Assembly: GCA_017412585.1 (NCBI GenBank)
Contig: JAFPXK010000085.1
Location: 24,953 to 88,952 of the forward strand
Source: Oscillospiraceae bacterium
GTDB lineage: Bacteria; Bacillota; Clostridia; Oscillospirales; Oscillospiraceae
Length of the DNA stretch: 64,000 nt
Direction: 5' to 3'
Shown here: piece after piece, positions 8,991-29,456 of the stretch
How the letters are laid out: each line of letters opens with the position of its first letter
Position numbering within the stretch: the stretch's first letter is position 1
Notes under the pieces: generated by a model
Seen by the model: only the letters and a program-made list of their open reading frames with translations
The model's database searches: none
Told to the model about the DNA's origin: nothing
Made by a program: the position numbers and the translations under genes

Positions 8991-8993
8991 GCC

Positions 8994-9938: not shown

Positions 9939-9940
9939 GA

Positions 9941-10612: not shown

Positions 10613-10732
10613 TGGATGTTCCTCCCGGTTTTCATATCAGCCACTATATTAAAATGGTGTCCTCTCAATGTCAAGTTGCAAATCGGACGTTCATCCGTTA
10701 AAATAGGAGAAAAGAGAGGGGAGGCGAGAGAC

Positions 10733-11908: not shown

Positions 11909-12009
11909 CAACCGAAAGTTGACAAATCAGCCGGGTGGGCAACCACAGGTTGCTTTACAATTTCCCCCATTTGTGCTACCATACCCCCGCATGAAAGGAG
12001 AGACGCACT

Positions 12010-12741: not shown

Positions 12742-14420
12742 AGCTGTTTTTCTACTATGCCTTCCACTCCTTCGTCAATCAGCTCCGCAAAGTGCTGAAA
12801 ACCTGGGTGGCGGTGTTCCTGCTGGTGTGCATCGTCATCGGCGCCGCCATCGGCTTCGGCGCGGCCAAAATCAGCGATTTGAAGGACGCGCAGGACGCCA
12901 TTGACGCCCAGACGGAGACGGTGGAAGAGGTGGACCTGCCGCCTGAGCTGGAGGAGCTCACCGAGGAGGCGTCCATGGAGGAAACCCTGGGCATCGACCG
13001 CCATCAGCTGGTGGAGCTGGTGACCGGGGCGGTGATTCTGGCTGTGTTCGTGATGCAGATTGCCGGGGCCGACAAAAACGGCAGCAAGATATTTCTGCCC
13101 GCCGACGTGACGCTGCTGTTCGCCGCGCCCATGCGGCCCCAGTCGGTGCTTCTGTTCCGGCTGATGACCCAGCTGGGCATGGCGCTGCTGGGCAGCGTGT
13201 ATCTGCTGTTCCAGCTCCCCAACCTGACGCTGAACCTGGGTCTGTCCACGGCGGCGGCCCTGAGCATCATCCTCACCTGGTTCGCCACGATCTTCACCGC
13301 CAAGCTGACCCAGGTGCTGCTGTACCTGCTGTGCTCGTCCCATGAAAGGCTGAAGGCCAACCTGCGCCGCATCCTCATTGCCGTGCTGGCGGCGGTGCTG
13401 GCGGGCTATCTGGCCTTCTGGCAGTCCTCCGGTCTTGCCCCGGCGGCTGCGGCGGCCAAGTTGTTCTGCGCCCCCTGGACCCGCTTCATTCCCCTGTGGG
13501 GCTGGCTGAAGGGCGTGGCCATCTTTGCCGCCGAAGGCCCCCTGTGGGCGGCGGCCGCCTGCCTTGCGGCCACGGCCCTGGGCTGCGTGGGACTGATGGC
13601 GATTTCGCTGCACCTGGACGTGGACTTTTATGAGGACGCCATGTCCCAGTCGGAGGAAACGGCAGAGCGCATGGCCCGCCTCCAGGCCGAGCAGCCCTCC
13701 CGGGTGATGCTGCGGCGGAAAAAGGATCGCAGCGACCGGCTGCGCCGGGACGGCCTCAATCACGGCCGGGGCGCCAGCGTGTTCTTCTTCAAGACCATGT
13801 ATAACCGCTTCCGCTTCGCCCACCTGGGCTTTCTGACCAAGACCACCGAGACGTATCTGGCGGCGGCCGTCGCCGTGGCGGTATTCTGCCGTATGGTCCT
13901 GGACGTGTACAGCATCCTGCCGGTGGCGCTGGTGCTGTCGGCCTGCGCCTTCTTCCGCGCCCTGGGCGACCCGCTGCCCGAGGACGTGGAGAACGACTAC
14001 TTCCGCCTGGTGCCGGAGCAGACCGGCGCCAAGCTGTGGTACTCGCTGCTGGGCGGCGCGGCCTGCTGCGCCCTGGACGTGCTGCCGGCTATGGTGGTGG
14101 GCGGCATCGTAATGAAGGCCATGCCCTGGCAGATGCTGGCCTGGACTGCCTTCGCCGTGTCGGTGGATTTCTTCTCCTCCACGGTGGGCACCTTCATCAG
14201 CGTGTCCCTGCCCTCGTCCATGGATAAGACGATGCGGCAGGTGGTGATGATCATGTTCGTCTATTTCGGCCTGATCCCCAACGCGGGCATCATGGTGCTG
14301 GGCATCGTGCTGCATCACGTCACCGCCGCCGCCATCATCGCCGCCGGGGTCAACGTGGGCCTGGGCCTCATCTTCTTCGCCCTGTCGCCCCTGTTTCTGC
14401 CGCCACAAGGTGGTAAATAA
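12738..14420 (+). CDS. putative ABC exporter permease (multi-TM, 560 aa)
   Basis: Start overlaps the ATPase stop (ATGA). At least 10 hydrophobic segments. No further family detail is supportable. Confidence 0.75.
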   Translation: MKLFFYYAFHSFVNQLRKVLKTWVAVFLLVCIVIGAAIGFGAAKISDLKDAQDAIDAQTETVEEVDLPPELEELTEEASMEETLGIDRHQLVELVTGAVILAVFVMQIAGADKNGSKIFLPADVTLLFAAPMRPQSVLLFRLMTQLGMALLGSVYLLFQLPNLTLNLGLSTAAALSIILTWFATIFTAKLTQVLLYLLCSSHERLKANLRRILIAVLAAVLAGYLAFWQSSGLAPAAAAAKLFCAPWTRFIPLWGWLKGVAIFAAEGPLWAAAACLAATALGCVGLMAISLHLDVDFYEDAMSQSEETAERMARLQAEQPSRVMLRRKKDRSDRLRRDGLNHGRGASVFFFKTMYNRFRFAHLGFLTKTTETYLAAAVAVAVFCRMVLDVYSILPVALVLSACAFFRALGDPLPEDVENDYFRLVPEQTGAKLWYSLLGGAACCALDVLPAMVVGGIVMKAMPWQMLAWTAFAVSVDFFSSTVGTFISVSLPSSMDKTMRQVVMIMFVYFGLIPNAGIMVLGIVLHHVTAAAIIAAGVNVGLGLIFFALSPLFLPPQGGK

Positions 14421-14835: not shown

Positions 14836-16008
14836 CTACCTGTCAAAGTCCTCCTTCATCCTCCGGAACAATTCCCCATCGGAGAAGATGCGGGCGCAGT
14901 GGTAGGCGATGATTTTCGCGCCGGTTTGCAGGGAATGGTACGCCCGCTCCGTGGTCATATAGGCGGCGAATTCCCGCTGGTGGATGGCCACGTCGTGGGG
15001 CACCGTCTCCAGGCAGGGGTGGAAGGTGGGGCACACCAGGCTTACGTTGCCGGCGTCGGTGGAGCCGAAGCGATTGGTGGGGGCGTCCAGTGAGAGCCCC
15101 AGCTCGCCGTAAATCTCCCGCAGCACGGCGGCGCCGGTGGGATTTTTCTTCAGCGGCATATAGGGCGGCTCGAAGTACTCCTTATCCCAGGTGCATTGGG
15201 TGGCGATGGCGGCGCCCCTGGCGCAGTCATCCACCCGGCGGAGAAGATCGGTCTGTGTATCGTTGCCCATGGAGCGGACGTACACCGCCGCCGAAACCTC
15301 GTCGGGCACGATGTTGGCCGCCGCGCCGCTGTTGCGGAAAATGCCGTGGATGCGGCACTCCGGCGTGATATGCTGGCGCATCATGTCCAGCGCGTGGAAG
15401 AAGAGCTGCCCCGCGTTGAAGGCGTTGCGTCCCTCCCAGGGGGCGGCAGCGGCGTGGGCGGCTTTGCCGTGGAAGTAGTACATCAGCGGCGTGATGGCCT
15501 GCACGTCCGGCTCCACCAGGTTGTAGTTATTCAGATGCACCATGATGGCCATGTCGTAGTCGTTGAACAATCCCCCGTCAGCCATGGCCACCTTGGCCCC
15601 CTCCGTCTCCTCGCCGGGGGTGCCGATAATGTGGATGTCCGCGTCCAGCTCATCCTGCAGCTCCGCCATGCTCAGCCCCGCCAGCAGGCTGATGCAGCAG
15701 CTCAGGCAGTGGCCGCAGGCGTGGCCCACGTCGGGCAGGGCGTCGTATTCCGTCAAAATGGCGATTTTCCGCCCCCGGGGCTGCCGGCCGGGCATGGCGG
15801 CGAAGAAAGCGGTGTCGATGCCGTAGAAGGGATATTCCACCGTATAGCCCTTGTCCCGCAGAAAGTCCACCACCCGCTGCGAGGTCTCATACTCCTGGCA
15901 GGACAGCTCGTGCTTATCAAAGATCCAGCCGTTCAGGGCGAACAGCGCCTCCCGTTCTCGGGCGATGACGTGGTCGATATGAGCCTTCATCTGTTCATAG
16001 GTCTGCAT
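14836..16008 (-). CDS. M20-family amidohydrolase (AbgB/M20D-like)
   Basis: 390 aa with ILTEYDALPDVGHACGHC and GTPGEETEGAKV metal-ligand motifs. Paralogous to 25993..27168. Confidence 0.8.
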   Translation of the reverse strand: MQTYEQMKAHIDHVIAREREALFALNGWIFDKHELSCQEYETSQRVVDFLRDKGYTVEYPFYGIDTAFFAAMPGRQPRGRKIAILTEYDALPDVGHACGHCLSCCISLLAGLSMAELQDELDADIHIIGTPGEETEGAKVAMADGGLFNDYDMAIMVHLNNYNLVEPDVQAITPLMYYFHGKAAHAAAAPWEGRNAFNAGQLFFHALDMMRQHITPECRIHGIFRNSGAAANIVPDEVSAAVYVRSMGNDTQTDLLRRVDDCARGAAIATQCTWDKEYFEPPYMPLKKNPTGAAVLREIYGELGLSLDAPTNRFGSTDAGNVSLVCPTFHPCLETVPHDVAIHQREFAAYMTTERAYHSLQTGAKIIAYHCARIFSDGELFRRMKEDFDR

Positions 16009-16029
16009 AAGTCTCCTCCTTCCGCCCGG

Positions 16030-16860
16030 TCAGGGCAGGTCGTACCGTTTTCCAGCGCTGGCCATGATGCAGCGCGCGCCGAACTTGGCTTTTATCTGGT
16101 AGATGGCTTCCAGGCCGGTGCAGTGGACAGGTATGATCAGCTTGGGGTCCTCCGCCGCCAGCAGGTCGATGACCCTGCTGCGCATGGCAGGTGTGGCAAA
16201 GGCCAGGTGCATCCCGGCAATCACGCCGGCCAGCGGCTCGCCGGGGAACAGCGTCCTGCAGTAGCGGACGGCGGCGGGCACACCCTTGTGGCTGCAGCCG
16301 GAGAAGAGATACACCCCCTCGCCGGTGCGGATGGCCAAAAACTGCTCGTGCCGCAGCGTGTCCGGCACCAGGGACCCGTCGGGCATGGCCAGGTAAAAGT
16401 CCTCCACCGGCTTAAACTCCGGCGCGTCCGGAATGGTGCCCGATATCACCGTATCCCCGTCCAGCCACACCGCTCCGTCCGTCAGCACCAGCCGGGAGGC
16501 CAGGGCCGCCTTTTCCTCCTCCGTCCACAGTATGCCGCAGTTGTAGTCGTCTATCACGCCGTCGGTAGTGCCGTAAATGGTGTGAAAGGCGTCCTTGTGG
16601 ATGTAGACAGGGGCATGGTCGTTGATGCGGCAGAAGGCGGGGATGCCGTTGGTGTGGTCGAAATGGGCGTGGCTCACCACGCACAGGTCCACCTCCGCCA
16701 GATCGACGCCCCTGGCCAGGGCGTTGCGGGCGAAAAGATCCGACGCCCCGGCGTCAAACAGGATCTTCCGCTCCGGCGTCTCAATCAGCATGGACAGGCC
16801 GAATTCCGCCCCGCATACGCCGATTTCCGTCTTGTTTTCAGAAAGAAAGGTCAGCTTCAT
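16030..16860 (-). CDS. MBL-fold metallo-hydrolase (COG1237-like)
   Basis: HxHxDH motif (SHAHFDH). Lies 21 nt upstream of the M20 gene on the same strand. Confidence 0.8.
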   Translation of the reverse strand: MKLTFLSENKTEIGVCGAEFGLSMLIETPERKILFDAGASDLFARNALARGVDLAEVDLCVVSHAHFDHTNGIPAFCRINDHAPVYIHKDAFHTIYGTTDGVIDDYNCGILWTEEEKAALASRLVLTDGAVWLDGDTVISGTIPDAPEFKPVEDFYLAMPDGSLVPDTLRHEQFLAIRTGEGVYLFSGCSHKGVPAAVRYCRTLFPGEPLAGVIAGMHLAFATPAMRSRVIDLLAAEDPKLIIPVHCTGLEAIYQIKAKFGARCIMASAGKRYDLP

Positions 16861-17077
16861 CGTTTCCTCCCTCCCGGCACAAAGAGCCGCTTTTATGTAC
16901 TTTTATTGTACAAAAAACCGCGGTGCATCGTCAACCGCCCTTTGGAAAGGGCGGCGCCGTAGGGGTCACAATAGCAATATAGTCAGCAAGTTGTTTCATT
17001 GCCACAGCGGGGAAACAGATGATACTATACCATTAAGAAGCTACGCGAAATATCAACGTATAAAGGAGAGATCATCC

Positions 17078-18775
17078 ATGAAGCTGGTAGTAGTTGGCGG
17101 CGTGGCCGGCGGCGCCTCTGTGGCGGCCCGTGTGCGCAGACTGGACGAGGCGGCGGAGATCCGCGTGTTCGAGCGGGGAGAGGACGTGTCCTACTCCAAC
17201 TGCTCGCTGCCCTATTATCTGGGCGGCGTGGTGCCCTCTGCCGACGACCTGGTGATGATGACGCCCCGCGCCTTCAAGGCCAGGCATAACATTGACGTGC
17301 AGGTGAATCACGAGGTCATTGCCATCGACCGCGCCGCCAAAACCGTCACCGTGAAGAACACCAAATCCGGTGAGACCTTCACCGAGAGCTACGACAAGCT
17401 GGTGCTGGCCCCCGGCGCGTCCCCCATCATGCCCGCATCCATCCAGGGCATCCGCCGGGACAACGTGTTTTCCGTCCGCAACGTGCAGGACGTGGTGCGC
17501 ATCAAGGCCTGCCTGGACGCCGGCGTGAAGGACGTGGTGGTGGTAGGCGGCGGCTTCATCGGCGTAGAGTGCGCCGAGAACCTGCGCCACGCCGGCAAGA
17601 ACGTCACCATCGTGGAGGGCCTGGGCCAGATCATGGCTCCCTTTGACTGCGACATGGTGCAGTATCTTCACAAGGAGCTCAACGACAACGGCGTTACCCT
17701 GTGCCTGAACAGCACCCTTACCGCTGTGGAGGACGGACACATTGTGGCCAAGCGGGATGACAAGACCTTTACCCTGCCGGCGGATGCGGTGATCATGGCC
17801 ATCGGCGTGGCCCCGGAGACGGGCCTGGCCCGTGACGCCGGGCTGGCAATCGGCACCACCCGGGGCATCAAGGTCAACGCCCACATGCAGACCAACGACC
17901 CGGATATCTACGCCGTTGGCGACGTGGTGGAGAGCGTCAACGCCCTCACCGGCCAGCCCGGCCGCCTGGCCCTGGCAGGCCCCGCCCAGCAGCAGGCCCG
18001 TGTGGCGGCCAACCACATCTGCGGCATCGACGACGCCTACAAGGGCTTCATCGGTTCCTCCTGCGTCCGTGTGTTCGGCCTCAACGCCGCCTCCACCGGC
18101 CTCAACGAGCGCGCCGCCAAAATGGCGGGCATTGACTTCGACTTCGTCAACGTCTATCCCGGCGATAAGGTGGGCATTATGCCCGACGCCCATTACATGG
18201 CCTTCAAGCTGCTCTACACCGTGCCGGAGGGCAAGCTCATCGGCGCCCAGGCCATCGGCAGGGGCGACGTGACCAAGCGGGTGGACGCGGTGGCGGCCAT
18301 GATCTCCCTGGGTGGCACGCTGGAGGATTTGGCGTCCTTTGAGCATTGCTACGCCCCGCTGTTCTCTACGGCCAAGGACGTGGTGAATATGGCGGCGCTG
18401 GTAGGCCTCAATGTGCTCCACGGCGCTGTGAAGCAGGTGCATTTGAGTGACATCCGCCCCCTGGTGGAGAGCGGCGCCTATATTGTGGACGTGCGGGAGG
18501 AGGGCGAGTTTGCCGCCGGCCATATCAAGGGCGCCCACAACGTGCCCTTGTCACAACTCCATCAGCGGCTGGAGGAGATTCCCCGGGACCGGCCCGTCTA
18601 TCTCCACTGCCGCACCAGCCAGCGGTCCTACTACGCCTACCGCACTCTGGTGCTGAACGGCTACGACAACGTCACCAATCTGAGCGGCTCCTTCCTGGGC
18701 CTGTGCCTGGAGGAGTACTTCAACGACGTCACCACCGGCCGGGAGCCCATTGTCACCAAGTACAATTTCCGGTAA
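17078..18775 (+). CDS. CoA-disulfide reductase / NADH oxidase family flavoprotein with C-terminal rhodanese domain
   Basis: Track ORF trimmed to ATG 17078 (RBS AAAGGAGAG). FAD fold VVVGGVAGGAS, redox Cys in SNCSLPYY, second Rossmann VVVGGGFIGVE, rhodanese active-site loop HCRTSQRS. Confidence 0.85.
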   Translation: MKLVVVGGVAGGASVAARVRRLDEAAEIRVFERGEDVSYSNCSLPYYLGGVVPSADDLVMMTPRAFKARHNIDVQVNHEVIAIDRAAKTVTVKNTKSGETFTESYDKLVLAPGASPIMPASIQGIRRDNVFSVRNVQDVVRIKACLDAGVKDVVVVGGGFIGVECAENLRHAGKNVTIVEGLGQIMAPFDCDMVQYLHKELNDNGVTLCLNSTLTAVEDGHIVAKRDDKTFTLPADAVIMAIGVAPETGLARDAGLAIGTTRGIKVNAHMQTNDPDIYAVGDVVESVNALTGQPGRLALAGPAQQQARVAANHICGIDDAYKGFIGSSCVRVFGLNAASTGLNERAAKMAGIDFDFVNVYPGDKVGIMPDAHYMAFKLLYTVPEGKLIGAQAIGRGDVTKRVDAVAAMISLGGTLEDLASFEHCYAPLFSTAKDVVNMAALVGLNVLHGAVKQVHLSDIRPLVESGAYIVDVREEGEFAAGHIKGAHNVPLSQLHQRLEEIPRDRPVYLHCRTSQRSYYAYRTLVLNGYDNVTNLSGSFLGLCLEEYFNDVTTGREPIVTKYNFR

Positions 18776-18792
18776 TTCATTCCCTCATAATC

Positions 18793-18827
18793 AAAAAATG
18801 TGCAGCCTTGCGGCTGCACATTTTTTT
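18793..18827 (+). terminator. Rho-independent terminator
   Basis: aaaaaatgtgcagcc-ttg-cggctgcacatttttt hairpin followed by a T-run. Confidence 0.75.
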
Positions 18828-18828
18828 A

Positions 18829-19021
18829 GCCTGTCAAAAAACGGCTATGCCGTTTTTTGACAATGGGATTGCAGTCTACTGCGCGCGCGAATAGTACGCC
18901 TTCGGCGCACTATTCGCACACTACGTAGCCTGAGAAGTGAAAAAAGTGACGCGCATGTCGTCACTTTTTTCGGATTTCATGGGTTCGCGCCTGCGGGCGC
19001 GAAATCTGCGATGCTTTTTTG
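18829..19021 (+). repeat. 193-bp modular four-hairpin repeat, copy A
   Basis: Reverse complement of 36883..37131 apart from about a dozen substitutions and a 56-nt insertion in copy B. Modules: GTCAAAAAACGGC hairpin, GCGAATAGT.CGCC hairpin, GAAAAAAGTGACG hairpin, TTCGCGCC hairpin. Confidence 0.9.
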
Positions 19022-19065
19022 CTATATTTGGTTCGAATCGCAGGGGAGCGCCGCGTATGCCGTCC

Positions 19066-20952
19066 CTATTCACTGAGGCACGGCGCGATGATCGCCAGCT
19101 GAATCCCCGGCCCCTTCAGGGAGAAATTCACGTTCAGGCCCGCCCGGGCAATTTCCAGATACGTCTCCAGCTCCGGCGAGCCGCCCAGCAGCTTCGCCGC
19201 CGCCAGGCTGTCCACCGCGTCCCGGCGGAAGTCCAGGGCGGAGAGGTGAGCGAATACGTTGTTTTCCCGGCTCATGCTGTATTTCATCACCGCGTAGGTG
19301 CCACTTTCCAGGTTCAGGCTGACGCCCAGATTCATCTCGTCCCGGTAGTCGTTGATGATGTGCTTCACGTCCATCATGTCCAAATCCCGCATGCAGGCAG
19401 AGCGGAGGGCTTCATTGCTGTTGCACACGAAAATGGCGAAGGCGTCGCCGTGGCTGCGGGGGATGCGGACCACGCAGTATTGCCCGCCCCGGGCGATCAT
19501 GTCCCCGCGGATGGCGGAGATGGCACAATAGGCGTAGAAGGAAGGCTTTCGACAGCCCCGGGCGGTGAGGGGAGAGGACTGCCCCTGCAGCAGCTCGCTG
19601 CTGTCGGTGTCCCGCAGATAGAGCTCCCCCGGTATCTCCCTGTGGTCCATCATCCGCTGCACGAGGCAGATGGGAAAGGCAATGGAATCGCAGGCGTAGC
19701 GCGGATGCACCTCCCGGTGGTTCTCCCGCCGCTGCTCCACGGCAAAGCCCACCTGGCGCAGCATGATTGCCAGGCGCTCTGCCTGGCTGTCACCCTCCTC
19801 GCCCTCCACGATCACTCTGTGGGGGCGCAGCTTCTCCAGGGCGGAAAACAGCTGCCCGCCCAGGGTGCTGGCGTCTGCCGCCGACACCACCACGTTCAGC
19901 TCCCGCCCGAAAGCGCCCATGGATTTGGCGCCCGGCTCCACCGTCACGTCCAGGGTGATGCTGTTCACCACGCTGCCGTCGCCCTGCTGGGCGCTCTGGC
20001 TGGAGTAGGCCTCCCGCACCACCGCCACGGCTCTGCTACTGGGCAGCGTCTGGAACACGCCGGGCCGCAGGTCGCTTTTGACCTGGCTGAGGTATCGCCT
20101 CCGGTGCTCCTGGGGCTCATAGCCGAACCATTTTTCAAAGTATTTCTTATAGTAGGACGTGGTGGAGAACCCCACCTCATGGGCAATCTGGCTGATTTTC
20201 TTGTTGGAGCCCAGCAGCCGCACCTCCGACATCTCCACCCGCGCAAAGCACAGGAATTCCCGGAAATTCATGCCGGTGAAGTCCTTGATGAGGTGGGAGA
20301 GGTAGAAGGAGCTGAGATATTCCATCTTGCTCAAATCCTGCAAAGTGATGTTGTTGGCGTAATTTTGGTACACATATTGCACGATGCGGCTGATGCGCTC
20401 CGCCGCCAGGGCGTTGCCCCGGTCGAAGCCCACCACCATATCCTTGTCGAAGGCAAAGAGATTGAAATGCTTGTCCAGGTGCTTGATGATATCCACCATC
20501 AGATAGAGGCATTCGCTCTTGTAGTTAAAGTCCTTCAGCTCATATTTCAGCAGCAGCTGCAGCATCAGGTCCCGCAGCCGCTCGTGTTTTTTGTCGTTGG
20601 GGTGCTTGGAATAGGTGCGGTAGCAGGCCTTGCTGAGATTGGGGAAAAACTGACTCAGATCCCGTGTGCTGACGTGGATTTGGGCCACCACGTTGTCCTC
20701 CGACACGGCGTACATGCTGTGTACCTCGTTGCCGGCGTTGGTAAAAATATCGCCGGCCTTGAGGTGATAGGTGCAGTAGCCGCTTTTCAGGTCGATCTCC
20801 CCCTGGAGAACGTAGACAAATTCGATATCCGGATGGTAATGAATGGGGTCTTCCACCAGGTGGGACACGGCGATCCGGATAGGGAAGTCATCGGCATAAA
20901 AAATGCGCTCCAGCAGCACGATGGCACACCTCCCATCATTTATCATATCCAT
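19066..20952 (-). CDS. AraC-family regulator (cupin + HTH) with ~330-aa uncharacterised C-terminal domain
   Basis: Cupin segment HYHPDIEFVYVLQGE. AraC HTH ISQIAHEVGFSTTSYYKKYFEKWFGYEPQEHRR. Start is ambiguous: ATG 20991/20952/20946, or GTG 20919, which follows GGGAGG. Confidence 0.8.
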   Translation of the reverse strand: MDMINDGRCAIVLLERIFYADDFPIRIAVSHLVEDPIHYHPDIEFVYVLQGEIDLKSGYCTYHLKAGDIFTNAGNEVHSMYAVSEDNVVAQIHVSTRDLSQFFPNLSKACYRTYSKHPNDKKHERLRDLMLQLLLKYELKDFNYKSECLYLMVDIIKHLDKHFNLFAFDKDMVVGFDRGNALAAERISRIVQYVYQNYANNITLQDLSKMEYLSSFYLSHLIKDFTGMNFREFLCFARVEMSEVRLLGSNKKISQIAHEVGFSTTSYYKKYFEKWFGYEPQEHRRRYLSQVKSDLRPGVFQTLPSSRAVAVVREAYSSQSAQQGDGSVVNSITLDVTVEPGAKSMGAFGRELNVVVSAADASTLGGQLFSALEKLRPHRVIVEGEEGDSQAERLAIMLRQVGFAVEQRRENHREVHPRYACDSIAFPICLVQRMMDHREIPGELYLRDTDSSELLQGQSSPLTARGCRKPSFYAYCAISAIRGDMIARGGQYCVVRIPRSHGDAFAIFVCNSNEALRSACMRDLDMMDVKHIINDYRDEMNLGVSLNLESGTYAVMKYSMSRENNVFAHLSALDFRRDAVDSLAAAKLLGGSPELETYLEIARAGLNVNFSLKGPGIQLAIIAPCLSE

Positions 20953-21118
20953 ATTATAGCAAAAGAGCAGCTTTGCTTCAATAGACAGCAAGAAAATTTG
21001 TTTTTACAGCAACAATCCTGTTGCCGCAGGTCCCAACGGCATATATACTTAAAATAGAATATGTGAAAATCAATGTTGCAGGGCCGCCCGGTCCGCCCCA
21101 ACAACAGGAGGAATCCCT

Positions 21119-23497
21119 ATGTTAAATGAACGTCTTACCCGTATGCGCAACAAGCTGTTTGACTCCCGCCCCAGCATTACGGCGGAGCGCCTGGTGCTGG
21201 CCACGGAGGCCTATCAGAAGTTCGCCGGCGAGGCGGTGCCCATCTTCCGCGCCAAGGTGGTGCGCTACATCGCCGAGCACATGACCACCCTCATCATGGA
21301 CGATGAGCTGATCGTGGGCACCGCCACCAACAAGTATCGCGGTGCCAACCTGCACCCGGAGTTCCAGTCCAGCACCAAGTTCTATCTGGACGAGCTGGAC
21401 GAGTTCCCCGTCCGCACCAAAGACCCCTACGATATCTCCCCGGAGGACAGGGAGCTGATCCTCAAGTATCTGCCCTATTGGGAGGGCAAGGCCATGCAGG
21501 ATATCGCCAAGCCCGCTCTGCCCACCCACACGGTGGAGTGCATGAACGATGACATCATCACCGTTGGCCTTACCAACGGCGTCTCCGGCGAGACCACCTG
21601 CGACCATGAGAAGGTGCTCACCCTGGGCCTGAAGGGCTACATGGAGGAGTGCCGGGCCAACATCGCCGCCACCATGCCCAAATGTCAGCTTGACGAGGAG
21701 AAGATCAACTTCTGGCAGGCCTGCATCATCCAGTGCGAGGGCCTTATCACCTATGCCCACCGCATGGCCGACGAGGCCCAGCGCCAGGCCGATGCCTGCG
21801 CCGACCCCAAGCGCCGTCGTGAGCTGCTGACCATCGCCGAGAACTGCCGCGTGGTGCCGGAGAATCCGCCCCAGACCTTCCAGCAGGCGCTGCAGCTGGT
21901 GTGGTTCGTCCATGTCTATTTCCACATCGAGGTCTGCACCACCGCCAACGGCTTCGGCCGCTTTGACCAGTATATGTGGCCCTACTATAAGAAGGACGTC
22001 ATCGACGACAAGCGCATCACCCAGGATGAGGCGCTGGAGATGCTGGAGTGCTTCTATCTGAAGGCCTGCGAGGTCTTTGAGGTGCGTGACCGCTGGTACG
22101 CCACCTCCTTTGCCGGCTATCCCATGTGGGAGATTCTGGTGGTAGGCGGCCAGACCCCCGATGGCAAGGACGCCACCAATGACCTGAGCTACCTGTGCCT
22201 GGAGGCCGCCAACCAGCTCAAGACCACCCAGCCCGTCATGGCCGTCCGCGTGTGGGATGGCACCCCCGAGGCGCTGATCCGCAAGGGCTGCGAGATGATC
22301 CAGGACGGCCAGGCCAACCCCGGCTTCTTCAATGACAACGTAGCCATGCAGATGGCCCTGGGCAAGGGCTGCTCCATGGAGGAGGCCCGTGACTGGACCA
22401 TCGTGGGCTGCATCCAGCCCGGCCCCGGCGGCGGCAGCACCGACGGCTCCCCCGACGCCGGCTACGTCAACATGGGCAAGATGATCGAGTTCGTGCTGCA
22501 TAACGGCGTGGACCCCGACACCGGCAAGCTGATGGGCCTCCAGACCGGCGACCCCAGAGAGTTCAAGAACGTGGAGGACCTGAAGAATGCCCTGAAAAAG
22601 CAGATTCTCCATCATTACCGCATGATCTGCGACGGCTACAACGTAATGCAGAGCATGCACATGACCCGCTACCCGGTGATTTTCGCCAGCATGGTCACCA
22701 AGGGCTGCGTGGAGAGCGGCCGCAGCGTTCAGCACGGCGGCGCCAAGTTCTCCACCGCCGGTCTCTATATCACCGGCGCGGCCAACCTGGCCGATTCCAT
22801 CGCCGCCATCGACACCTGCGTGTTCCGCGATCACGACTTCACCATGGATGAGCTCATCGCCGCCCTGGACAAGAACTTTGAGGGCGAGGAGCGCATGCGC
22901 CAGCTGCTGCTGAACAAGGCCCCCAAGTTCGGCAACGACAACGAGTACGTGGACGGCATCTACCGTGAGATGATGCATTTCATCGCCGAGAACGTGCAGG
23001 AATGGCCCGACGCCCGTGGCGGACGGTATTCCTTCAATGTCCATTCCCAGACTGTCAACGTGTCCCACGGCATGGTCTGCGGAGCCACCCCCGACGGCCG
23101 CCTGGCCGGCGAGCCCTTCTGCGACAACGCCTCGCCCATGATGGGCCGTGACGTGAAGGGCCCCACCGCCACGGTGAAGTCCGTGGCCGCCATGGGCCAG
23201 ACCGCCTTCCACGACGGCGCCCTGTTCAACCTCCGCTTCGACCCCAAGGGCGTGGAGGGCGAGAAGGGCCTGCAGAGCATCGAGGGCGTCATCAAGACCT
23301 ACTTCAAGCACGGCGGCGAGCATATCCAGATCAACGTGGTGGACAACAAGACCCTGAAGGACGCCCAGATTCACCCCGAGAAGTACCGGGGCCTCATGGT
23401 CCGCGTGGCGGGCTACATGGCCTACTTCACCGAGCTGGATAAGAGCGCCCAGGACACCATCATCTACCGCACGCCCCACTACGCCCGCCCGGAATAA
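21119..23497 (+). CDS. glycyl radical enzyme (PFL-like fold), unknown specificity
   Basis: 792 aa. C-terminal glycyl-radical motif MVRVAGYMAYF (G765). Putative thiyl loop DWTIVG-C431-I-Q433-PG. RBS AGGAGGAA. Confidence 0.9.
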   Translation: MLNERLTRMRNKLFDSRPSITAERLVLATEAYQKFAGEAVPIFRAKVVRYIAEHMTTLIMDDELIVGTATNKYRGANLHPEFQSSTKFYLDELDEFPVRTKDPYDISPEDRELILKYLPYWEGKAMQDIAKPALPTHTVECMNDDIITVGLTNGVSGETTCDHEKVLTLGLKGYMEECRANIAATMPKCQLDEEKINFWQACIIQCEGLITYAHRMADEAQRQADACADPKRRRELLTIAENCRVVPENPPQTFQQALQLVWFVHVYFHIEVCTTANGFGRFDQYMWPYYKKDVIDDKRITQDEALEMLECFYLKACEVFEVRDRWYATSFAGYPMWEILVVGGQTPDGKDATNDLSYLCLEAANQLKTTQPVMAVRVWDGTPEALIRKGCEMIQDGQANPGFFNDNVAMQMALGKGCSMEEARDWTIVGCIQPGPGGGSTDGSPDAGYVNMGKMIEFVLHNGVDPDTGKLMGLQTGDPREFKNVEDLKNALKKQILHHYRMICDGYNVMQSMHMTRYPVIFASMVTKGCVESGRSVQHGGAKFSTAGLYITGAANLADSIAAIDTCVFRDHDFTMDELIAALDKNFEGEERMRQLLLNKAPKFGNDNEYVDGIYREMMHFIAENVQEWPDARGGRYSFNVHSQTVNVSHGMVCGATPDGRLAGEPFCDNASPMMGRDVKGPTATVKSVAAMGQTAFHDGALFNLRFDPKGVEGEKGLQSIEGVIKTYFKHGGEHIQINVVDNKTLKDAQIHPEKYRGLMVRVAGYMAYFTELDKSAQDTIIYRTPHYARPE

Positions 23498-23507
23498 GGA
23501 GCGCTCC

Positions 23508-24431
23508 ATGAAAGCACTGGTCGGCAACATTCAAAAATTCTCCACGGAGGACGGCCCCGGTATACGCACCACCGTGTTCCTCAAAGGCTGCCCGCTGCGG
23601 TGCCGCTGGTGCCATAACCCGGAGCTTATCAGCTACGAGCAGCAGCTCATTCAGATGCCCAATAGCTGCATCCACTGCGGCTATTGCCTGACCCATTGCC
23701 CCCAAAACGCTATTTCGGTGGGGGAGGACGCCAAAATCCATATCGACCGGGAGAAGTGTGACAGATGCTTTGCCTGCACCGCCTTCTGCTATGCCGAGAG
23801 CCTGCGGAAGGTGGCCCGGGAGATGACCCCCCAGGAGGTTATGGCCGAGGTGGTCCAGGACAAGGATTTTTACGACAGCACCGGCGGCGGCATGACCGTC
23901 AGCGGCGGCGAGATGCTCTCCCACCCCGATTTCACTGCCGCGCTGGTAGACCTGGCGGCCCAGGAGGGCATCTGCGTCTGCCTGGACACCTCCGGCTACG
24001 GCGACGGCGACACGCTGTACCGCCTGGTAAAGCGCGAGAACGTGACTCACGTGCTGTATGACATGAAGTCCATCGACGACGCCGTGCATCAGGCCTATAC
24101 GGGGCGGAGCAACAAGGTGATTTTGGATAATCTCCGCCGTCTGGCCGCCGACCCGGTCACCCGGGAGAAGATTCAGATGCGCATGCCGCTGACCCATGAC
24201 GTCAACGATACCCCCGCCATCATCGAGGCCACGGCCGATCTATACCGTCAGCTGGGCCTCAAGCGCGTGACGCTGCTGCCCTATCACGACCTGGGCAAGG
24301 CCAAGCTGCGGAACATCGGCGGTACGCCGGAGAGCTTCACGCCGCCCTCCGATGAGCGGGTGGAGGAGATTCGCGCCTGTTTCCGCACCGCGGCGGACAT
24401 GGACGTGGAGATTTTAGGCAAGCTGGACTGA
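23508..24431 (+). CDS. glycyl-radical enzyme activating protein (radical SAM)
   Basis: C28PLRC32RWC35 (CX3CX2C) plus two ferredoxin-type motifs, CIHCGYCLTHCP and CDRCFACTAFC. Starts 10 nt after the GRE. Confidence 0.9.
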   Translation: MKALVGNIQKFSTEDGPGIRTTVFLKGCPLRCRWCHNPELISYEQQLIQMPNSCIHCGYCLTHCPQNAISVGEDAKIHIDREKCDRCFACTAFCYAESLRKVAREMTPQEVMAEVVQDKDFYDSTGGGMTVSGGEMLSHPDFTAALVDLAAQEGICVCLDTSGYGDGDTLYRLVKRENVTHVLYDMKSIDDAVHQAYTGRSNKVILDNLRRLAADPVTREKIQMRMPLTHDVNDTPAIIEATADLYRQLGLKRVTLLPYHDLGKAKLRNIGGTPESFTPPSDERVEEIRACFRTAADMDVEILGKLD

Positions 24432-24486
24432 CACCCCTGTGCCCTGCGGGGCCACATATCATCCAATAACGGAAAGGAGAACGAGT

Positions 24487-25254
24487 ATGGATTTCACAGG
24501 TAAGGTAGCCATTGTTACCGGCGCCGGCGGCGATATGGGCCGGGCCATCGTTAAGAAGTTTACCGACAACGGCGCCAAGGCGGTGCTTATGGACATCCGC
24601 GAGGAGGCGGCCCGGAGATCGGTAGCGCTCCTGGGGCTGGATGAGGAGCATGGCTTCGTGGTCACCGTGGACGTGGCCAGTGAGGACAGCGTCAAGGCCG
24701 CCGTGCAGAAGGTGATGGACAAGTACGGCCGTATCGACTGCCTGGTGAATCTGGCGGGCATCGAGGGCCCCAACAACAGCCGCACGGAGGAATACGATTT
24801 CAAAATGGCCAAGAAGGTGTTTGAGATCAACGTCTACGGCACCTTCCTGATGATGCAGAATGTGCTGCCCGTCATGCAGGCTCAGAAGAGCGGCGCCATC
24901 GTCAACTTCGGCTCCGTGTCCGGCATGTTCGGCTATGCCGGCGAGATCGCCTACGGCGCCTCCAAGGCCGCCGTCATCCACATGACTAAGAACGCCGCCA
25001 ACGAGAACGGCGGCAACGGCGTCCGCGTCAACGCCATTTCTCCCGGCTGGGTGAACACGGAGATGTTCCGCCGCATCCTGGAGCAGTATAAGGAGACCTT
25101 TGAGAACCCCCTGGATAACGTGACCCTGGGCCCCATGAACCGTCCCGGCGAGCCCATGGAAATGGCCAACGTGGTGGTGTTCCTTTGCTCCGACGAGGCG
25201 TCCTATGTCAACGGCTCCAACTTCCTGGTGGACGGCGGCATGACGCTGGGTTAA
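24487..25254 (+). CDS. SDR-family oxidoreductase
   Basis: Trimmed to ATG 24487 (RBS AAAGGAGAA). TGAGGDMG cofactor motif and YGASKAA (YxxxK). Confidence 0.85.
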   Translation: MDFTGKVAIVTGAGGDMGRAIVKKFTDNGAKAVLMDIREEAARRSVALLGLDEEHGFVVTVDVASEDSVKAAVQKVMDKYGRIDCLVNLAGIEGPNNSRTEEYDFKMAKKVFEINVYGTFLMMQNVLPVMQAQKSGAIVNFGSVSGMFGYAGEIAYGASKAAVIHMTKNAANENGGNGVRVNAISPGWVNTEMFRRILEQYKETFENPLDNVTLGPMNRPGEPMEMANVVVFLCSDEASYVNGSNFLVDGGMTLG

Positions 25255-25289
25255 TTTTGGTGTGACTTACCCTCTCACATATATTTGGT

Positions 25290-25328
25290 GCAGCCCGGCT
25301 CCGACCGTAGAGGTCGGAGCCGGGCTGC
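25290..25328 (+). terminator. strong hairpin after the SDR gene
   Basis: 17-bp stem gcagcccggctccgacc / ggtcggagccgggctgc. Confidence 0.6.
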
Positions 25329-25466
25329 GCTTGCGGAACTGTTTTCCTGTGAAATACAGCAATCCGATGTGGATTTCTCCACCACACAATCATGGATTTG
25401 ACCTGAATGCTGTGGTATTGTAAAAATGTAAAAGACGGCGAAATACCACGTTTTGGAGGGATGAAC

Positions 25467-25916
25467 ATGGCAGAAAAAATGACAGAGCAGCGCGCCAATG
25501 AAATGATGGCCGTAGGCTACCATTGCTCCCAGGTGGTTATGTGCCACGTGGCGGAGTGCCTGGGACAGGACGTGAATGCCGCCTTGCGGCTCACCGCCGG
25601 TTTGGGCGCCGGCTGCAACCATGGTGACACCTGCGGCGTGCTGTCCGCGGGCTCTCTGGCCCTGGGGCTTCTGTATGGCTACGATAAGCCCAACGCCACC
25701 GAGGAGAATGCCAGGCTGATTGCGCTGGTGCGGGAGTTCCACAGCCGCTTTGAGGCTATTCACGGCGCCACCCTTTGCCGCCAGCTCCTGAAGGGCTACG
25801 ACGCCGCCGACCCCAACCGGGTCAGCACCCCTCATACCTGGGACAACTGCGGCAAATACTGCGCCGACGCCTGCGCCATCCTGGACGACATGATCGGCGA
25901 CCGTTACGTGGCGTAG
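25467..25916 (+). CDS. C_GCAxxG_C_C family putative redox protein
   Basis: GYHCSQ..., GDTCGVLSAG core and C-terminal CGKYCADAC. ATG 25467 lies 7-8 nt after GGAGGG. Confidence 0.7.
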   Translation: MAEKMTEQRANEMMAVGYHCSQVVMCHVAECLGQDVNAALRLTAGLGAGCNHGDTCGVLSAGSLALGLLYGYDKPNATEENARLIALVREFHSRFEAIHGATLCRQLLKGYDAADPNRVSTPHTWDNCGKYCADACAILDDMIGDRYVA

Positions 25917-25941
25917 CCCCACCCGTTTTCGCAATACACAA

Positions 25942-25976
25942 GCGCCGCCCCCGGACGATATGCCCGGGAGCGGCGC
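25942..25976. terminator. hairpin between convergent genes
   Basis: gcgccgcccccgg / cccgggagcggcgc stem with one mismatch. Confidence 0.5.
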
Positions 25977-25992
25977 CTGTCTGCATAATGGG

Positions 25993-27168
25993 TTATTTTG
26001 CGCTGCAGGTGGTGTCGTCAAACTCCTTGCGGATTGCCGCCAGGAAGGCGGGATCGGTGAGCACGTCCTCCGCCGTGGCCACAAAGGCCTTGGCCACGAT
26101 GAAGAGCTGGTCATAGCCGTAGTCGGAGTCGGCGCCGGCCAGCAGCTCCGGGGTGTGGGTGCCGATGCCCGTGTTGCCGCCGATCACGTCGAACCACTGG
26201 TGGATGGTGGGGCAGCGGTAACTGACGTTGCCGATATCGGAGGAGCCGGTGGAGGAGTATTTCTCCATGTCCTGGGTGACGCCAAATGCCTTGGTGTGCT
26301 CCACCGCCCGGCGGGAAAGGGTTTCATTGGTGTGCAGGTCGTCGTACCAGCCCTCGAAGTTGGTGACCTTCAGCTCCGTGCCGGTAGCCAATGCGGCGGC
26401 CTTGGCGCAGTTGATCACCTTTTCGCTGAAGCCCCGCAGATAAGTGGAGTCGGGATGGCGGATATAGAACTCCGCCATGGCATAGTCGGGCACGATGTTG
26501 GCAGCCTTGCCGCCGTCCCGGATGACGCCCGCCACCCGTGCGTCAGGCTCCACGTGGCCCCTGAGGGCATTGATGTTGTTGAACGTCTCGATGACGCCGT
26601 TCAGTGCGTTGACGCCCTTCCAGGGGGCGCCGCCGGCGTGGGCGCTCTTGCCGAAGAACTCAAAGCGCTGGGAGTCCAGGGCGTTGAAGCCGCCGCTGGC
26701 GCCGTGCCGCCCGAAGGGGTGGGCCATCATGGCCACTGCCAGGTCGTCGTACCGTCCGGCAGCCGCCAGATTCACCTTGCCGCCCAGGGTCTCCTCGGCG
26801 GGCGCGCCGATGACCCGCACCTCGCCGCCGTATTCGTCGATGGCCTCCCGCAGGGCAATGCCGCAGCAAACCGCCAGCGCGCCGATCATATTGTGTCCGC
26901 AGGCATGCCCCATGCCCTTCAGCGCATCGTATTCCGCCAGAAATCCGATTACCGGTCCGGGCTTACTGCCCTTGTAGGTGGCGATGTATGCCGTCTCCAG
27001 GTCACACACGTTGCGCTCAATGGTGAAGCCGTATTTCTCCAGCAGCGCCGTCATGTTGGCCACCGCGTGGAATTCCTGCATGCCCAGCTCCGGATCCTCG
27101 TGCATCTGATGGGCCAGAGCCCGGATTTCCGGACGCAGCGCCTCTACCCGTTCGTGGATACTCTTCAT
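25993..27168 (-). CDS. M20-family amidohydrolase (M20D-like)
   Basis: 391 aa with FLAEYDALKGMGHACGHN and GAPAEETLGGKV. Paralogue of 14836..16008. Confidence 0.8.
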   Translation of the reverse strand: MKSIHERVEALRPEIRALAHQMHEDPELGMQEFHAVANMTALLEKYGFTIERNVCDLETAYIATYKGSKPGPVIGFLAEYDALKGMGHACGHNMIGALAVCCGIALREAIDEYGGEVRVIGAPAEETLGGKVNLAAAGRYDDLAVAMMAHPFGRHGASGGFNALDSQRFEFFGKSAHAGGAPWKGVNALNGVIETFNNINALRGHVEPDARVAGVIRDGGKAANIVPDYAMAEFYIRHPDSTYLRGFSEKVINCAKAAALATGTELKVTNFEGWYDDLHTNETLSRRAVEHTKAFGVTQDMEKYSSTGSSDIGNVSYRCPTIHQWFDVIGGNTGIGTHTPELLAGADSDYGYDQLFIVAKAFVATAEDVLTDPAFLAAIRKEFDDTTCSAK

Positions 27169-27188
27169 GGGATCATTCCTTTCTGATA

Positions 27189-27947
27189 TTATGATTTGAT
27201 TTTGCTCTCAATCAACGCCACAAGCTCCTTGGCCGCGCCAAGCTGGTCCGGCATAAAGGCGTAGGTTCGCCGGATGCGCTTGTTGTCACCGCGGATGGAG
27301 ATCACAGGAAACTTGCGGTTTTCCGTTTCGCTTCCGCCGGGCGCGGTGGGACAGGAGAGGGAGATCTCGTCGATGGATACCTGGCCGATGTGGTCATAGT
27401 GCCAGGACATGTTCTCCTGGGTCTCGGCAGGGGAGAGAAGGGAGCGCACCACACTGAAGGCCTCAATGCTTTCCGGCCCCAGCACGAAATAGCTCATCTG
27501 CAAATGGGAGGAGCGGCCTACCTTGTCAGCGCCGTCGGCGCGGTAAAGAGGGGCATTTTTGTCAATAGAGAGAGTGGAATAGCCGCGCAGCAGCACCTTG
27601 TCGCTGCACTCAAAGTCGTCTATGTCCATGTCGGAGGCGTTGAGCGCTCTGCTCTCAAAATGAGTCTCCCGCTGCAGCGCCAGGCAGCGCCGGTCTACCT
27701 CGTCGCCGCTGACCTTGGCCATGCGGGTGTAGAAAAACTGCCACACGGCGATGCCCAGCAGCATGGCGGCAACGGCGTAGTAGAATCCTCCGTGTCCCGC
27801 CTGCACGTTGTAGTAAGCAAAGGCGGCGGCTGCTGCCGCGCCCAGGAGCAGGATGGGAATGGTGCCGCGGCGGTATTTGCGCTGAAAATAGAGATCGGTG
27901 CGTTCGGACTGGTATAGCTTCGGGTTGGTTTTTTTCTCGTTTGCCAT
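27189..27947 (-). CDS. hypothetical membrane protein (2 TM + soluble domain)
   Basis: Two TM segments (IPILLLGAAAAAAFAYY, YAVAAMLLGIAVWQFFY) followed by a ~170-aa soluble domain. No family recognised. Confidence 0.6.
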   Translation of the reverse strand: MANEKKTNPKLYQSERTDLYFQRKYRRGTIPILLLGAAAAAAFAYYNVQAGHGGFYYAVAAMLLGIAVWQFFYTRMAKVSGDEVDRRCLALQRETHFESRALNASDMDIDDFECSDKVLLRGYSTLSIDKNAPLYRADGADKVGRSSHLQMSYFVLGPESIEAFSVVRSLLSPAETQENMSWHYDHIGQVSIDEISLSCPTAPGGSETENRKFPVISIRGDNKRIRRTYAFMPDQLGAAKELVALIESKIKS

Positions 27948-27985
27948 GGGCTTGCACGTCCTTTTTTAGAAATGTGGAACGGAAA

Positions 27986-28013
27986 AGAGGGCCGCGCAGG
28001 AGCGCGGCCCTCT
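27986..28013 (-). terminator. hairpin after yfcC-like gene
   Basis: 12-bp stem agagggccgcgc / gcgcggccctct with a short T-run on the minus strand. Confidence 0.5.
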
Positions 28014-28061
28014 CATCAGTGTTAATCCTGCGGTAGAACGATGTTGTGTTTTCCGATGGTC

Positions 28062-29456
28062 TTACTGATAGTTGATCATCACGGCGATCACGATCAGGAT
28101 CACCTGGACCAGGAAGCAGATAGCGTACACGGGGATGAAGAACTTGTACCACTTCTCCAGAGGAATCTTGCCGATACCGCACATGGTAGCCACGGAGCAG
28201 GTGGGCCACAGCATGTTGGAGTAGCCGTCGCCGAACTGGTAGGCCAGAACGGTGACCTGACGGGACACGCCGGCGAGGTCGCCCAGAGGTACCATGATGG
28301 GCATGATAGCGGTAGCCTGGCCGGAGCCGGAGGGGATGAAGAAGTTGATGATGTTCTGGGCGATCAGCATGGCAATGGCGGAGCCGTATCTGCCAAGACC
28401 GGTCATGACGGAGGACAGCGCGTGCACCACGGTGTCGATGATGACGCCGTTCTGCATGATCACCAGGATGGCGCGGGCCAGGCCCACCACCACCATGCCG
28501 ATGGCCATTTCCTTGAACGCGGTCAGCAGGTTATCCTTGATCTGCTCGGGCTTGAAGCCGGCGATGATGGAGACAACCAGAGCGGAGATGATGAACACGG
28601 CGCTCATCTCGTTCAGCCAGAAGCCCAGTTTCAGAGAGCCGTACACGATGGTGGCAACGGTGAGGATCATGGACAGCAGGATGATCTTCTGCTTGGTGGT
28701 GAAGTCCACCTTCTCCTGGCGCTCCAGCTGGAAGGAGGAGAAGTCCACGCCGTAGACGTAGCTCTTGGTGGGATCGGCCTTGACCTTGGCGGCGTAGCGC
28801 ATGCACAGCAGGGTCATCACGGCGTACTGGACAAAGAAGATGATCCAGCGATACACCAGGCCTGAGAAGATGGGGATCTCCGCGATGGCCTGGGCCACAC
28901 CGATGGTGAAGGCGTTGGTGGTGGCGGAGGCGAAGCCGGTGGCCACGCCCACGAAGCACATGCACAGGCCGACGATGGCATCATAGCCCAGCGCGATAGC
29001 CAGAGCCACGAAGATGGGCACCAGGCCGTACACCGTCTCCAGCTCGCCGTAGGTAGAACCGGCGATAGCGAAGATGAACATGCAGATGGGGATGAACAGC
29101 TTGCTGTCGCGGGCCTTGCTGTTGAGCAGCTTGTTGATGGCGGAGGTCAGGGCGCCGCTCTGCATGACGCTGTAGACCCAGAAGAAACCGAATGCGATCA
29201 GGAAGATGATGTTGGACACGGCGTCGAAGGCGCCGGCCATCATGGAGAACATCTGGAAGGGGTTAACAGGGCTCTGATCGACTCTGTGGTAGGTGGAGGG
29301 ATCCACCAGGGTGCGGCCGGTAGCCTCATCCACGAAGCGGTCATATACACCGGCAGGAATGATGTAGGTGCAGATCATGACCACGACGATGATCAGGAAC
29401 AGCAGCACGGGAGTACTGGGAAGGCTAAACTTTCTCTTCTTCTGCAAATCTGCCAT
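28062..29456 (-). CDS. YfcC/DcuC-family anaerobic carrier (putative amino-acid/dicarboxylate transporter)
   Basis: 464 aa, at least 10 TM, YfcC-like N-terminus (KKRKFSLPSTPVLLFLIIVVVMICTYIIPAGVYDR). Confidence 0.75.
   Translation of the reverse strand: MADLQKKRKFSLPSTPVLLFLIIVVVMICTYIIPAGVYDRFVDEATGRTLVDPSTYHRVDQSPVNPFQMFSMMAGAFDAVSNIIFLIAFGFFWVYSVMQSGALTSAINKLLNSKARDSKLFIPICMFIFAIAGSTYGELETVYGLVPIFVALAIALGYDAIVGLCMCFVGVATGFASATTNAFTIGVAQAIAEIPIFSGLVYRWIIFFVQYAVMTLLCMRYAAKVKADPTKSYVYGVDFSSFQLERQEKVDFTTKQKIILLSMILTVATIVYGSLKLGFWLNEMSAVFIISALVVSIIAGFKPEQIKDNLLTAFKEMAIGMVVVGLARAILVIMQNGVIIDTVVHALSSVMTGLGRYGSAIAMLIAQNIINFFIPSGSGQATAIMPIMVPLGDLAGVSRQVTVLAYQFGDGYSNMLWPTCSVATMCGIGKIPLEKWYKFFIPVYAICFLVQVILIVIAVMINYQ

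Follow-up and report, generated by a model that had tools for sequence, protein, structure and literature searches.

Glycyl-radical enzyme and its Cys loop

The window analysed here is a stretch of 64,000 nucleotides from an Oscillospiraceae bacterium (contig JAFPXK010000085.1), and our subject is a gene in it for a glycyl-radical enzyme (GRE) whose Cys loop has Gln in place of the canonical Glu. This gene is followed by genes for a radical S-adenosylmethionine activase, a short-chain dehydrogenase/reductase (SDR) and a C_GCAxxG_C_C family protein, and an AraC-family regulator is encoded upstream on the opposite strand (Table 1). Open reading frames (ORFs) and Pfam domains agree with this anatomy, which an initial annotation had read from the letters alone. 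The GRE belongs to a distinct, widespread and uncharacterised group of GREs that have a remodelled active site and occur in Clostridia of gut and rumen; the group is not a new kind of system.

Table 1. Features of the GRE locus (positions in the window)
Feature	Position	Strand	Remarks
M20 amidohydrolase (TIGR01891)	14836..16008	-	recurrent neighbour
CoA-disulfide-reductase-like flavoprotein, C-terminal rhodanese (CoADR-rhodanese)	17072..18775	+	TIGR03385 436 bits; adjoins the AraC gene in about 20 loci
AraC-family regulator	19066..20991	-	cupin and helix-turn-helix in residues 1-300, then C-terminal domain of about 330 aa
Divergent intergenic control region	20992..21118	.	promoter-like site 21021-21049 (+) 5' of the GRE gene; consensus match only
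GRE, 792 aa, PFL-like and Gly_radical domains	21119..23497	+	Pfam; full-length alignments to 37 solved GREs, best E 1.7e-174
Glu158 codon, site of GDH His164 / CutC Asp216	21590..21592	+	clade-invariant; strict co-occurrence with Gln433
Cys loop G430-C431-I-Q433-P-G-P-G-G-G439	22406..22435	+	C431 thiyl Cys; Q433 for canonical Glu; GGG contains a one-residue insertion
Glycyl radical motif R-V-A-G765-Y	23402..23416	+	
Activase, GRE activating enzyme (radical SAM)	23508..24431	+	Pfam Radical_SAM, Fer4_12, Fer4; start 10 nt past the GRE stop
SDR, classical oxidoreductase, conserved GRE partner	24484..25254	+	Pfam adh_short
C_GCAxxG_C_C family protein, putative redox-active Cys protein	25407..25916	+	Pfam PF09719; co-operonic with the GRE gene in L009, L010, L013, L015, L160
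Second M20 amidohydrolase	25993..27168	-	
YfcC/DcuC-type transporter ('putative basic amino acid antiporter')	28062..29456	-	recurrent neighbour

Pfam assigned the protein to PF02901 PFL-like (1.3e-193) and PF01228 Gly_radical (3.2e-31), and a good ribosome-binding site (AGGAGG) lies 7 nt 5' of its ATG. Its best-scoring solved relatives include glycerol dehydratase (GDH; 1R8W, E 1.7e-174), propanediol dehydratase (PD; 5I2A, 2.4e-168) and, as the second-best, the trans-4-hydroxy-D-proline C-N lyase/isomerase HplG (7VUA, 5.2e-172). In HMMER alignments to these three structures, C431 aligns with the catalytic Cys and Q433 with the Cys-loop Glu, GCVEP or GCIEP in the solved enzymes versus GCIQP here. 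C431 is invariant in the clade. The three alignments agree, and both the assignment of C431 as the thiyl Cys and the Glu-to-Gln replacement noted at the outset are borne out. The segment that holds both residues reads DWTIVGCIQPGPGGGSTDG. Near the C-terminus, the RVxG[FWY] motif is present as RVAGY and is kept in 194/195 clade sequences. The activase has the C28x3C32x2C35 motif and two ferredoxin-type motifs, CIHCGYCLTHC and CDRCFACTAFC, and scores 286 bits on TIGR02494 (cut-off 174). Because fold and catalytic residues are present, the activase exceeds this cut-off and the sequence is strongly conserved, the locus looks like one that encodes a functional GRE with its own dedicated activase, for which a glycyl radical is predicted. 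Two long antisense ORFs opposite the GRE and AraC genes, of 802 aa (21122-23530, -) and 706 aa (18937-21057, +), are high-G+C artefacts.

None of the NCBIfam equivalog models was passed by the GRE (scores against cut-offs: HypD 592/1100, CutC 540/1050, HpsG 546/1000, HpfG 521/1000). The HypD model was the best equivalog match for the GRE and for the activase, with scores far under the cut-offs. On the general subfamily model TIGR01774 the GRE scored 675.7 bits, marginally under the cut-off of 678.2, and automatic naming may therefore be inconsistent. Public names of the GRE are generic, such as 'pyruvate formate-lyase' or 'formate C-acetyltransferase/glycerol dehydratase family'. We found no biochemical assignment of the clade in the literature searched, which left most subscription journals outside, and absence there is not proof. 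The statement of the initial annotation that substrate and reaction are open still holds, qualified by the PhdB precedent and by Glu158 (both below).

All 195 non-redundant clade sequences, which span 72-100% identity, have Q433, and more distant relatives keep it down to 54% identity. GC[IV]QP is read in 120/120 database homologues at 83-100% identity. Gln433 is therefore not a sequencing error. At least 80 GTDB species carry close relatives (73-99% identity), mostly Oscillospiraceae and Anaerovoracaceae of rumen and gut plus others, and the clade is also found in hundreds of metagenome clusters. A goat-rumen Oscillospiraceae metagenome-assembled genome (MAG) is a 99% match to the window. Cultured carriers include Emergencia timonensis SN18, Ihubacter sp. 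rT4E-8, Aminicella lysinilytica DSM 28287, Senimuribacter, Flavonifractor, Eubacterium sp. F2 and Oscillibacter sp. 1-3, which has two copies. These paralogous Gln-type GREs (L061 and L071) share 83% and 79% identity with the window protein, and their genes lie about 42 kb apart on contig NZ_KE159709.1. All carriers are Clostridia except at L017, L042 and L063, loci with 84% identical GREs whose bins bear the labels Bacteroidaceae, Bacteroides stercoris and Alistipes communis. These probably reflect binning contamination, or else horizontal transfer.

Remodelled active site

Active-site positions were mapped from the alignment to GDH and from a CutC-like sequence that reproduced 10/10 named CutC residues at a fixed offset. 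In this mapping, Glu158 occupies the site of GDH His164 and CutC Asp216, Thr275 that of GDH His281 and CutC Thr334, Phe331 that of CutC Phe389, Trp337 that of CutC Phe395, Asp446 that of GDH Asp447, and Tyr449 that of CutC Tyr506. The residues mapped here, Phe331 included, do not vary among the 195 sequences and are kept to 54% identity; the invariant signature reads E158-T159, T274-T275-A276, W337, C431-x-Q433, GGG, P445-D446 and Y449. Gln433 is always accompanied by Glu158, Thr275 and Asp446, and E158 and D446 give the pocket two acids. Of the 147 nearest 50%-identity representatives, only 5 have an acid at the 158 site, a CutC-like sequence among them.

GDH and PD resemble the window enzyme in the fold, the Cys and Gly loops, the FDQYM motif, the Asp at the site of GDH Asp447, the paired activase and the downstream reductase. 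The two types differ at the catalytic positions. His164 of GDH is replaced by Glu158, His281 by Thr275, Glu435 by Gln433, and Tyr640 by His, Met or Leu. Furthermore, Asn156-Tyr157 of GDH is deleted in the clade, whose Cys loop has one additional Gly. The diol dehydratase set His164/His281/Glu435 is thus absent from the window enzyme but present in L112, its nearest Glu-type relative. The L112 GRE is 50% identical, is encoded in the same SDR-GRE-activase operon and has H158, H275, E433 and T446. Because this sister shows these residues, the changes at 158, 275, 433 and 446 happened together. In a neighbouring CxQ group (P0122, P0127), Glu is found at position 642 in place of Glu158, and therefore a carboxylate seems to be retained somewhere in the pocket. 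Judged from the alignments, the carboxylate of the window clade is still in the pocket, apparently moved to the CutC-like amine-binding position. His642 was considered as an alternative base and dropped, since members of the Gln/Glu158 group have H, D, L or M there.

In a neighbour-joining tree, which is crude and without support values, L112 is sister to the Gln clade, followed by the CxQ group with Glu642 and a CxE sequence, and then by the HplG-like branch, the nearest characterised one. Other CxQ representatives fall elsewhere, away from the clade. The substrate of HplG is a hydroxy-amino acid, in which the enzyme breaks a C-N bond to form a ketone. In contrast to the clade, HplG keeps CXE (Cys427, Glu429), and the HplG-like representative has Asn at the 158 site. 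HypD and HpyG/HpzG (hydroxyproline and N-methyl-hydroxyproline dehydratases) are alike in pairing a dehydratase with a reductase as electron sink, but all of them also keep CXE.

Gly-rich loops often bind carboxylates, which would suit a reading in which Gln433 binds a substrate carboxylate while the thiyl radical takes the hydrogen of the alpha-carbon, leading to decarboxylation or another non-elimination reaction. The precedent for this is PhdB, the sole characterised GRE that we found with Cys-x-Gln in its Cys loop (compared by published residues only), which corresponds to C431-I-Q433. PhdB has Cys482-x-Gln484; its Q484E, Q484A and Q484L variants are inactive, and the authors concluded that this essential Gln is not an acid/base residue (PMC7079210). 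PhdB differs from the window enzyme in being longer (Gly815), in its arylacetate substrate and in having no reported SDR or aldo-keto reductase (AKR) partnership. The clade groups in the tree with HplG-like and dehydratase-like sequences, away from other CxQ representatives, and its nearest relative L112 is a canonical His/His/Glu enzyme with a like operon. The conserved SDR or AKR partner suits a carbonyl product better than a hydrocarbon, and no arylacetate-making genes were found nearby. Taken together, a PhdB-like reaction is quite unlikely for the window enzyme.

According to a 2026 review of GREs, CXE is kept by every characterised eliminase and isomerase. In the clade, the Glu two residues past the catalytic Cys that marks GRE 1,2-eliminases and isomerases is replaced by Gln433 in all sequences. 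About 27% of the 147 nearest 50%-identity representatives have a non-CXE loop, and CxQ arises in several unrelated branches. The CXQ loop is thus unusual but, given PhdB, not unique. For CutC, a hydrogen-bonded relay Glu491-Thr502-Asp216 that surrounds the substrate has been proposed (PMC12451663). Because this relay joins Asp216 and Glu491, the 158 and 433 sites should, by analogy, be adjacent in space. These results bear on two claims of the initial annotation. It had held the standard Glu-assisted elimination to be unlikely. This is supported by the missing Cys-loop Glu and by CXE in all characterised eliminases, but not by Glu158, which lies on a neighbouring loop. A Glu at the equivalent position, which would speak against that claim, is half supplied by this residue, which strictly accompanies Gln433 and stands at the site tied into the CutC relay. 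The annotation had also taken the non-canonical loop as marking a candidate for new chemistry. The Gln is indeed found clade-wide; the PhdB precedent and the frequency of non-CXE loops qualify this argument. New GRE chemistry is possible, and Glu-assisted elimination with a relocated Glu appears, from the residues, at least as likely.

Gene neighbourhood and regulator

Gene neighbourhoods were counted at 106 loci with distinct GRE sequences, both in the GRE operon and within six genes. The activase gene is in the operon in 83/106 loci and within six genes in 86/106; for SDR the counts are 33/106 and 38/106. AKR replaces SDR in other loci (12/106 and 17/106). Also recurrent are a LysP-like amino-acid permease (16/106 and 18/106), an NhaC-like transporter (8/106 and 9/106) and CoADR-rhodanese (7/106 and 21/106). 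A long, divergent AraC regulator is within six genes in 62/106 loci and in the GRE operon in 1/106. SDR orthologues with 48-100% identity adjoin the GRE gene in 45 other loci, at positions -1, +2, +5 and +8 and on either side. The nearest neighbours of the window SDR are borneol dehydrogenase, levodione reductase and 3-hydroxybutyrate dehydrogenase; they are generic and do not identify the substrate. The transporters resemble carriers of basic amino acids (LysP-like, NhaC/ArcD-like and YfcC-like), and a binding protein is of the cystine or Lys/Arg/Orn type.

In five rumen MAG loci (L160, L009, L010, L013 and L015) the GRE gene heads an 8-gene operon with gaps of 3-118 nt, in the order GRE, activase, M20, CoADR-rhodanese, C_GCAxxG, SDR, 137-aa protein and M20. 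The window holds the gene set of this L160-type operon in scattered orientation, and therefore its functional unit extends to roughly 14836-29456. CoADR-rhodanese probably belongs to the same functional set as the GRE. A 276-aa protein encoded between the M20 and CoADR-rhodanese genes (16030-16860, -) gave only weak matches to the metallo-beta-lactamase fold. Two apparent operon families of 675 aa and 646 aa proved to be spurious, since in high-GC loci these ORFs run antisense to the AraC and CoADR genes. A preprint on metallo-BSH deals with PF07969 enzymes rather than M20 and is irrelevant to the M20 neighbours.

Several of these neighbours point to sulfur or thiol chemistry, which raises the question of a sulfur-bearing substrate, for example an amine with a thiol or thioether group, as in compounds of the cysteamine/cystamine or S-substituted cysteine type. 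A thiol(ate) on or beside the radical carbon or a thiolate leaving group needs no Glu base, and this would explain Gln433. CoADR-rhodanese and C_GCAxxG would then reduce disulfide substrates or clear persulfide or sulfide, and the M20 enzymes would free the amine from an N-acyl conjugate. The tight 8-gene operon of the five rumen loci, which holds both CoADR-rhodanese and C_GCAxxG, the same gene set around the window GRE, and CoADR-rhodanese within six genes of the GRE in 21 loci argue for this, as do PatB C-S lyase, a cystine-type binding protein, DsbA and glyoxalase in Oscillospiraceae loci. The thiol genes are, however, missing from most Anaerovoracaceae loci, which have only AraC, SDR, GRE and activase genes plus transporters. 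The pocket has E158 and D446 rather than the sulfonate-binding Arg/Arg/Gln of known C-S lyases, the named substrates come from inference only, and thiols are not known to us as GRE substrates. Overall, we regard a sulfur-bearing substrate as unlikely.

The same redox genes could serve a reductive GRE like class III ribonucleotide reductase, in which a second active-site Cys is oxidised at each turnover and re-reduced by CoADR-rhodanese and C_GCAxxG. Clade-specific C161, C273 and C668 lie in active-site segments, and thiol-redox genes are co-operonic in some lineages. These Cys residues weakened as candidates for a second redox Cys, because they are not kept in the subgroup of 54-65% identity: P0121 and L087-L094 do not keep them while having the whole Gln/Glu signature. 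The redox genes are also missing from many loci. This makes a reductive enzyme very improbable.

A different set of genes was observed in five Anaerovoracaceae loci (L059, L066, L067, L068 and L070; e.g. L070:12689-15948), where genes for a corrinoid protein, MttB (trimethylamine) and MtbB (dimethylamine) lie 0-4 genes past the activase. The MttB and MtbB ORFs are each broken by an in-frame TAG, as expected for pyrrolysine. This arrangement suggests a CutC-like lyase that would free trimethylamine or dimethylamine from an N-methylated substrate, after which pyrrolysine-dependent methyltransferases would consume the methylamine. The pocket is consistent with such a lyase, because the CutC ammonium-site set is matched by E158, T275, F331, W337 and Y449 (an acid at the Asp216 site, Thr at Thr334, aromatics at Phe389 and Phe395, and Tyr at Tyr506), except that the acid is Glu instead of Asp and that Tyr208 is replaced by Leu151. 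An HpyG-like enzyme, of the N-methyl-hydroxyproline dehydratase type, is co-operonic in L091. On the other hand, the general base of CutC, the essential Glu491, is Gln433 in the clade, identity to the CutC-like representative is about 35%, and the score on the CutC equivalog TIGR04394 is about half of its cut-off. The methyltransferase linkage is confined to 5-6 loci of a single family, perhaps one inherited arrangement. Neither BCCT-type betaine transporters nor microcompartment genes occur nearby, and no bacterial microcompartment shell domains are among the called neighbours, so that the cut-cluster context is lacking. Release of methylamines by the clade is hence improbable.

The L091 locus (5947-13278 of a metagenome contig) encodes the HpyG-like GRE (1069 bits to 8ID1) and its activase. 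Directly after them come the genes for an aldo-keto reductase, a Gln-type GRE and the activase of the latter. The two GREs stand under one long AraC regulator. The HpyG-like enzyme also has Glu at the 158 site.

The regulator is a member of the AraC/XylS family by its domains (PF12833 HTH_18, 2.5e-14; Cupin_2, 1.1e-9). The TTG start of its ORF is likely too far 5', and the true start is probably the ATG at 20952 (MDMINDG...), which fits the homologue lengths of about 613-636 aa. Another promoter-like site, at 20981-20953 (-), lies inside the 5' end of the AraC ORF and is a consensus match only. Single-sequence searches of the C-terminal domain against PDB and Pfam gave no match, and a homologue search gave one fragment only. 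A profile built from 20 such C-terminal domains matched glycoside hydrolase family 39 (GH39) beta-xylosidases at E 4e-5, a remote match. It covers about 40-50 residues (the last barrel strand), with a weak match to the beta-sandwich, and the catalytic region is not covered. The extra domain is probably GH39-like but degenerate, with a role in sensing or dimerisation, and the match does not identify its ligand.

Proposed reaction and its wider meaning

The reading that we prefer, tentatively and short of calling it probable, is that the GRE is an active enzyme of the eliminase/isomerase type which acts on a cationic amino-acid-like substrate, with Glu158 and Asp446 for amine binding and acid/base work, Gln433 as a hydrogen-bonding residue and a carbonyl reductase as partner. 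It starts from what is directly seen, namely fold and motifs, residues that covary and genes that are linked. From these we infer the substrate class, the bond that is cleaved and the role of each residue. The activase would put the radical on G765, as expected from family membership. The GRE would then cleave a C-N (or C-O) bond beside a heteroatom-bearing carbon of the substrate. The acid/base work may have been relocated, so that Glu158, aided by Asp446, would hold or protonate the amine or leaving group from the position of CutC Asp216 and GDH His164. Gln433 would be a hydrogen-bond partner only. The carbonyl or imine product would be reduced by the co-inherited SDR, or by AKR in other lineages, and the pathway would work as an electron sink, as does HypD with pyrroline-5-carboxylate reductase or glycerol dehydratase with propanediol dehydrogenase. 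Uptake may occur through LysP-like, NhaC-like or YfcC-like permeases, and control may be exerted by the divergent AraC regulator with the GH39-like domain. Candidate substrates would be hydroxylysine, hydroxypipecolate, cysteamine and others.

Several points weigh against this preferred reading. CutC E491Q and HypD E440Q are cited as abolishing activity (PMC7079210), and because of this Gln at the Cys-loop Glu site is not a trivial change. The transporter types differ between lineages. Some neighbours point to sulfur or thiols instead, namely CoADR-rhodanese, C_GCAxxG, PatB C-S lyase, the cystine-type binding protein and DUF2284. The placement of the clade depends on the crude tree described above. 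An AlphaFold2 model of the GRE was unusable (mean predicted local distance difference test (pLDDT) score 52.6, predicted template-modelling score 0.48), and its pLDDT was under 50 in the barrel core and at both catalytic loops. The input was 26 sequences of 82-93% identity, which is too little alignment diversity.

A bolder form of the idea is that the clade catalyses an undescribed GRE reaction, a radical cleavage on a cationic amine, perhaps a sulfur- or N-methyl-bearing one, without a Cys-loop general base. It would proceed through the relocated Glu158 or through a substrate group that needs no deprotonation, and in some lineages it would be coupled to the CoADR/rhodanese and C_GCAxxG thiol-redox module. 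We consider this doubtful as it stands. If base-free or relocated-Glu cleavage is true, Clostridia of gut and rumen would have an amino-compound pathway that is widespread but has gone unrecognised.

GREs of the gut carry out host-relevant reactions on choline, hydroxyproline, isethionate and cresol, and new GRE functions have repeatedly come from clades with unusual-looking active sites. The clade, which comes with a fixed reductase partner and dedicated permeases, is a natural experiment: the Glu on which CutC and HypD depend has given way to Gln, and a carboxylate is found on another loop. Assignment of its substrate would add a pathway to the amino-compound metabolism of gut and rumen, and it would also test how far the acid/base residue of GRE eliminases can be moved. 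The cultured carriers make the function testable.

No second GRE was found in the window, and the rest of it looks like ordinary chromosome. It encodes a [FeFe]-hydrogenase-like protein (31328-32872), DNA polymerase I (44621-47275), and GH31 and GH36 glycosidases (49337-51640 and 58456-60996). A tRNA-Thr (CGU) gene at 49300-49375 (+) is overlapped by the GH31-like ORF listed from 49337, and the true start of this ORF is therefore further downstream. An FMN riboswitch (RF00050, 102 bits) was detected at 37856-37978 (-).

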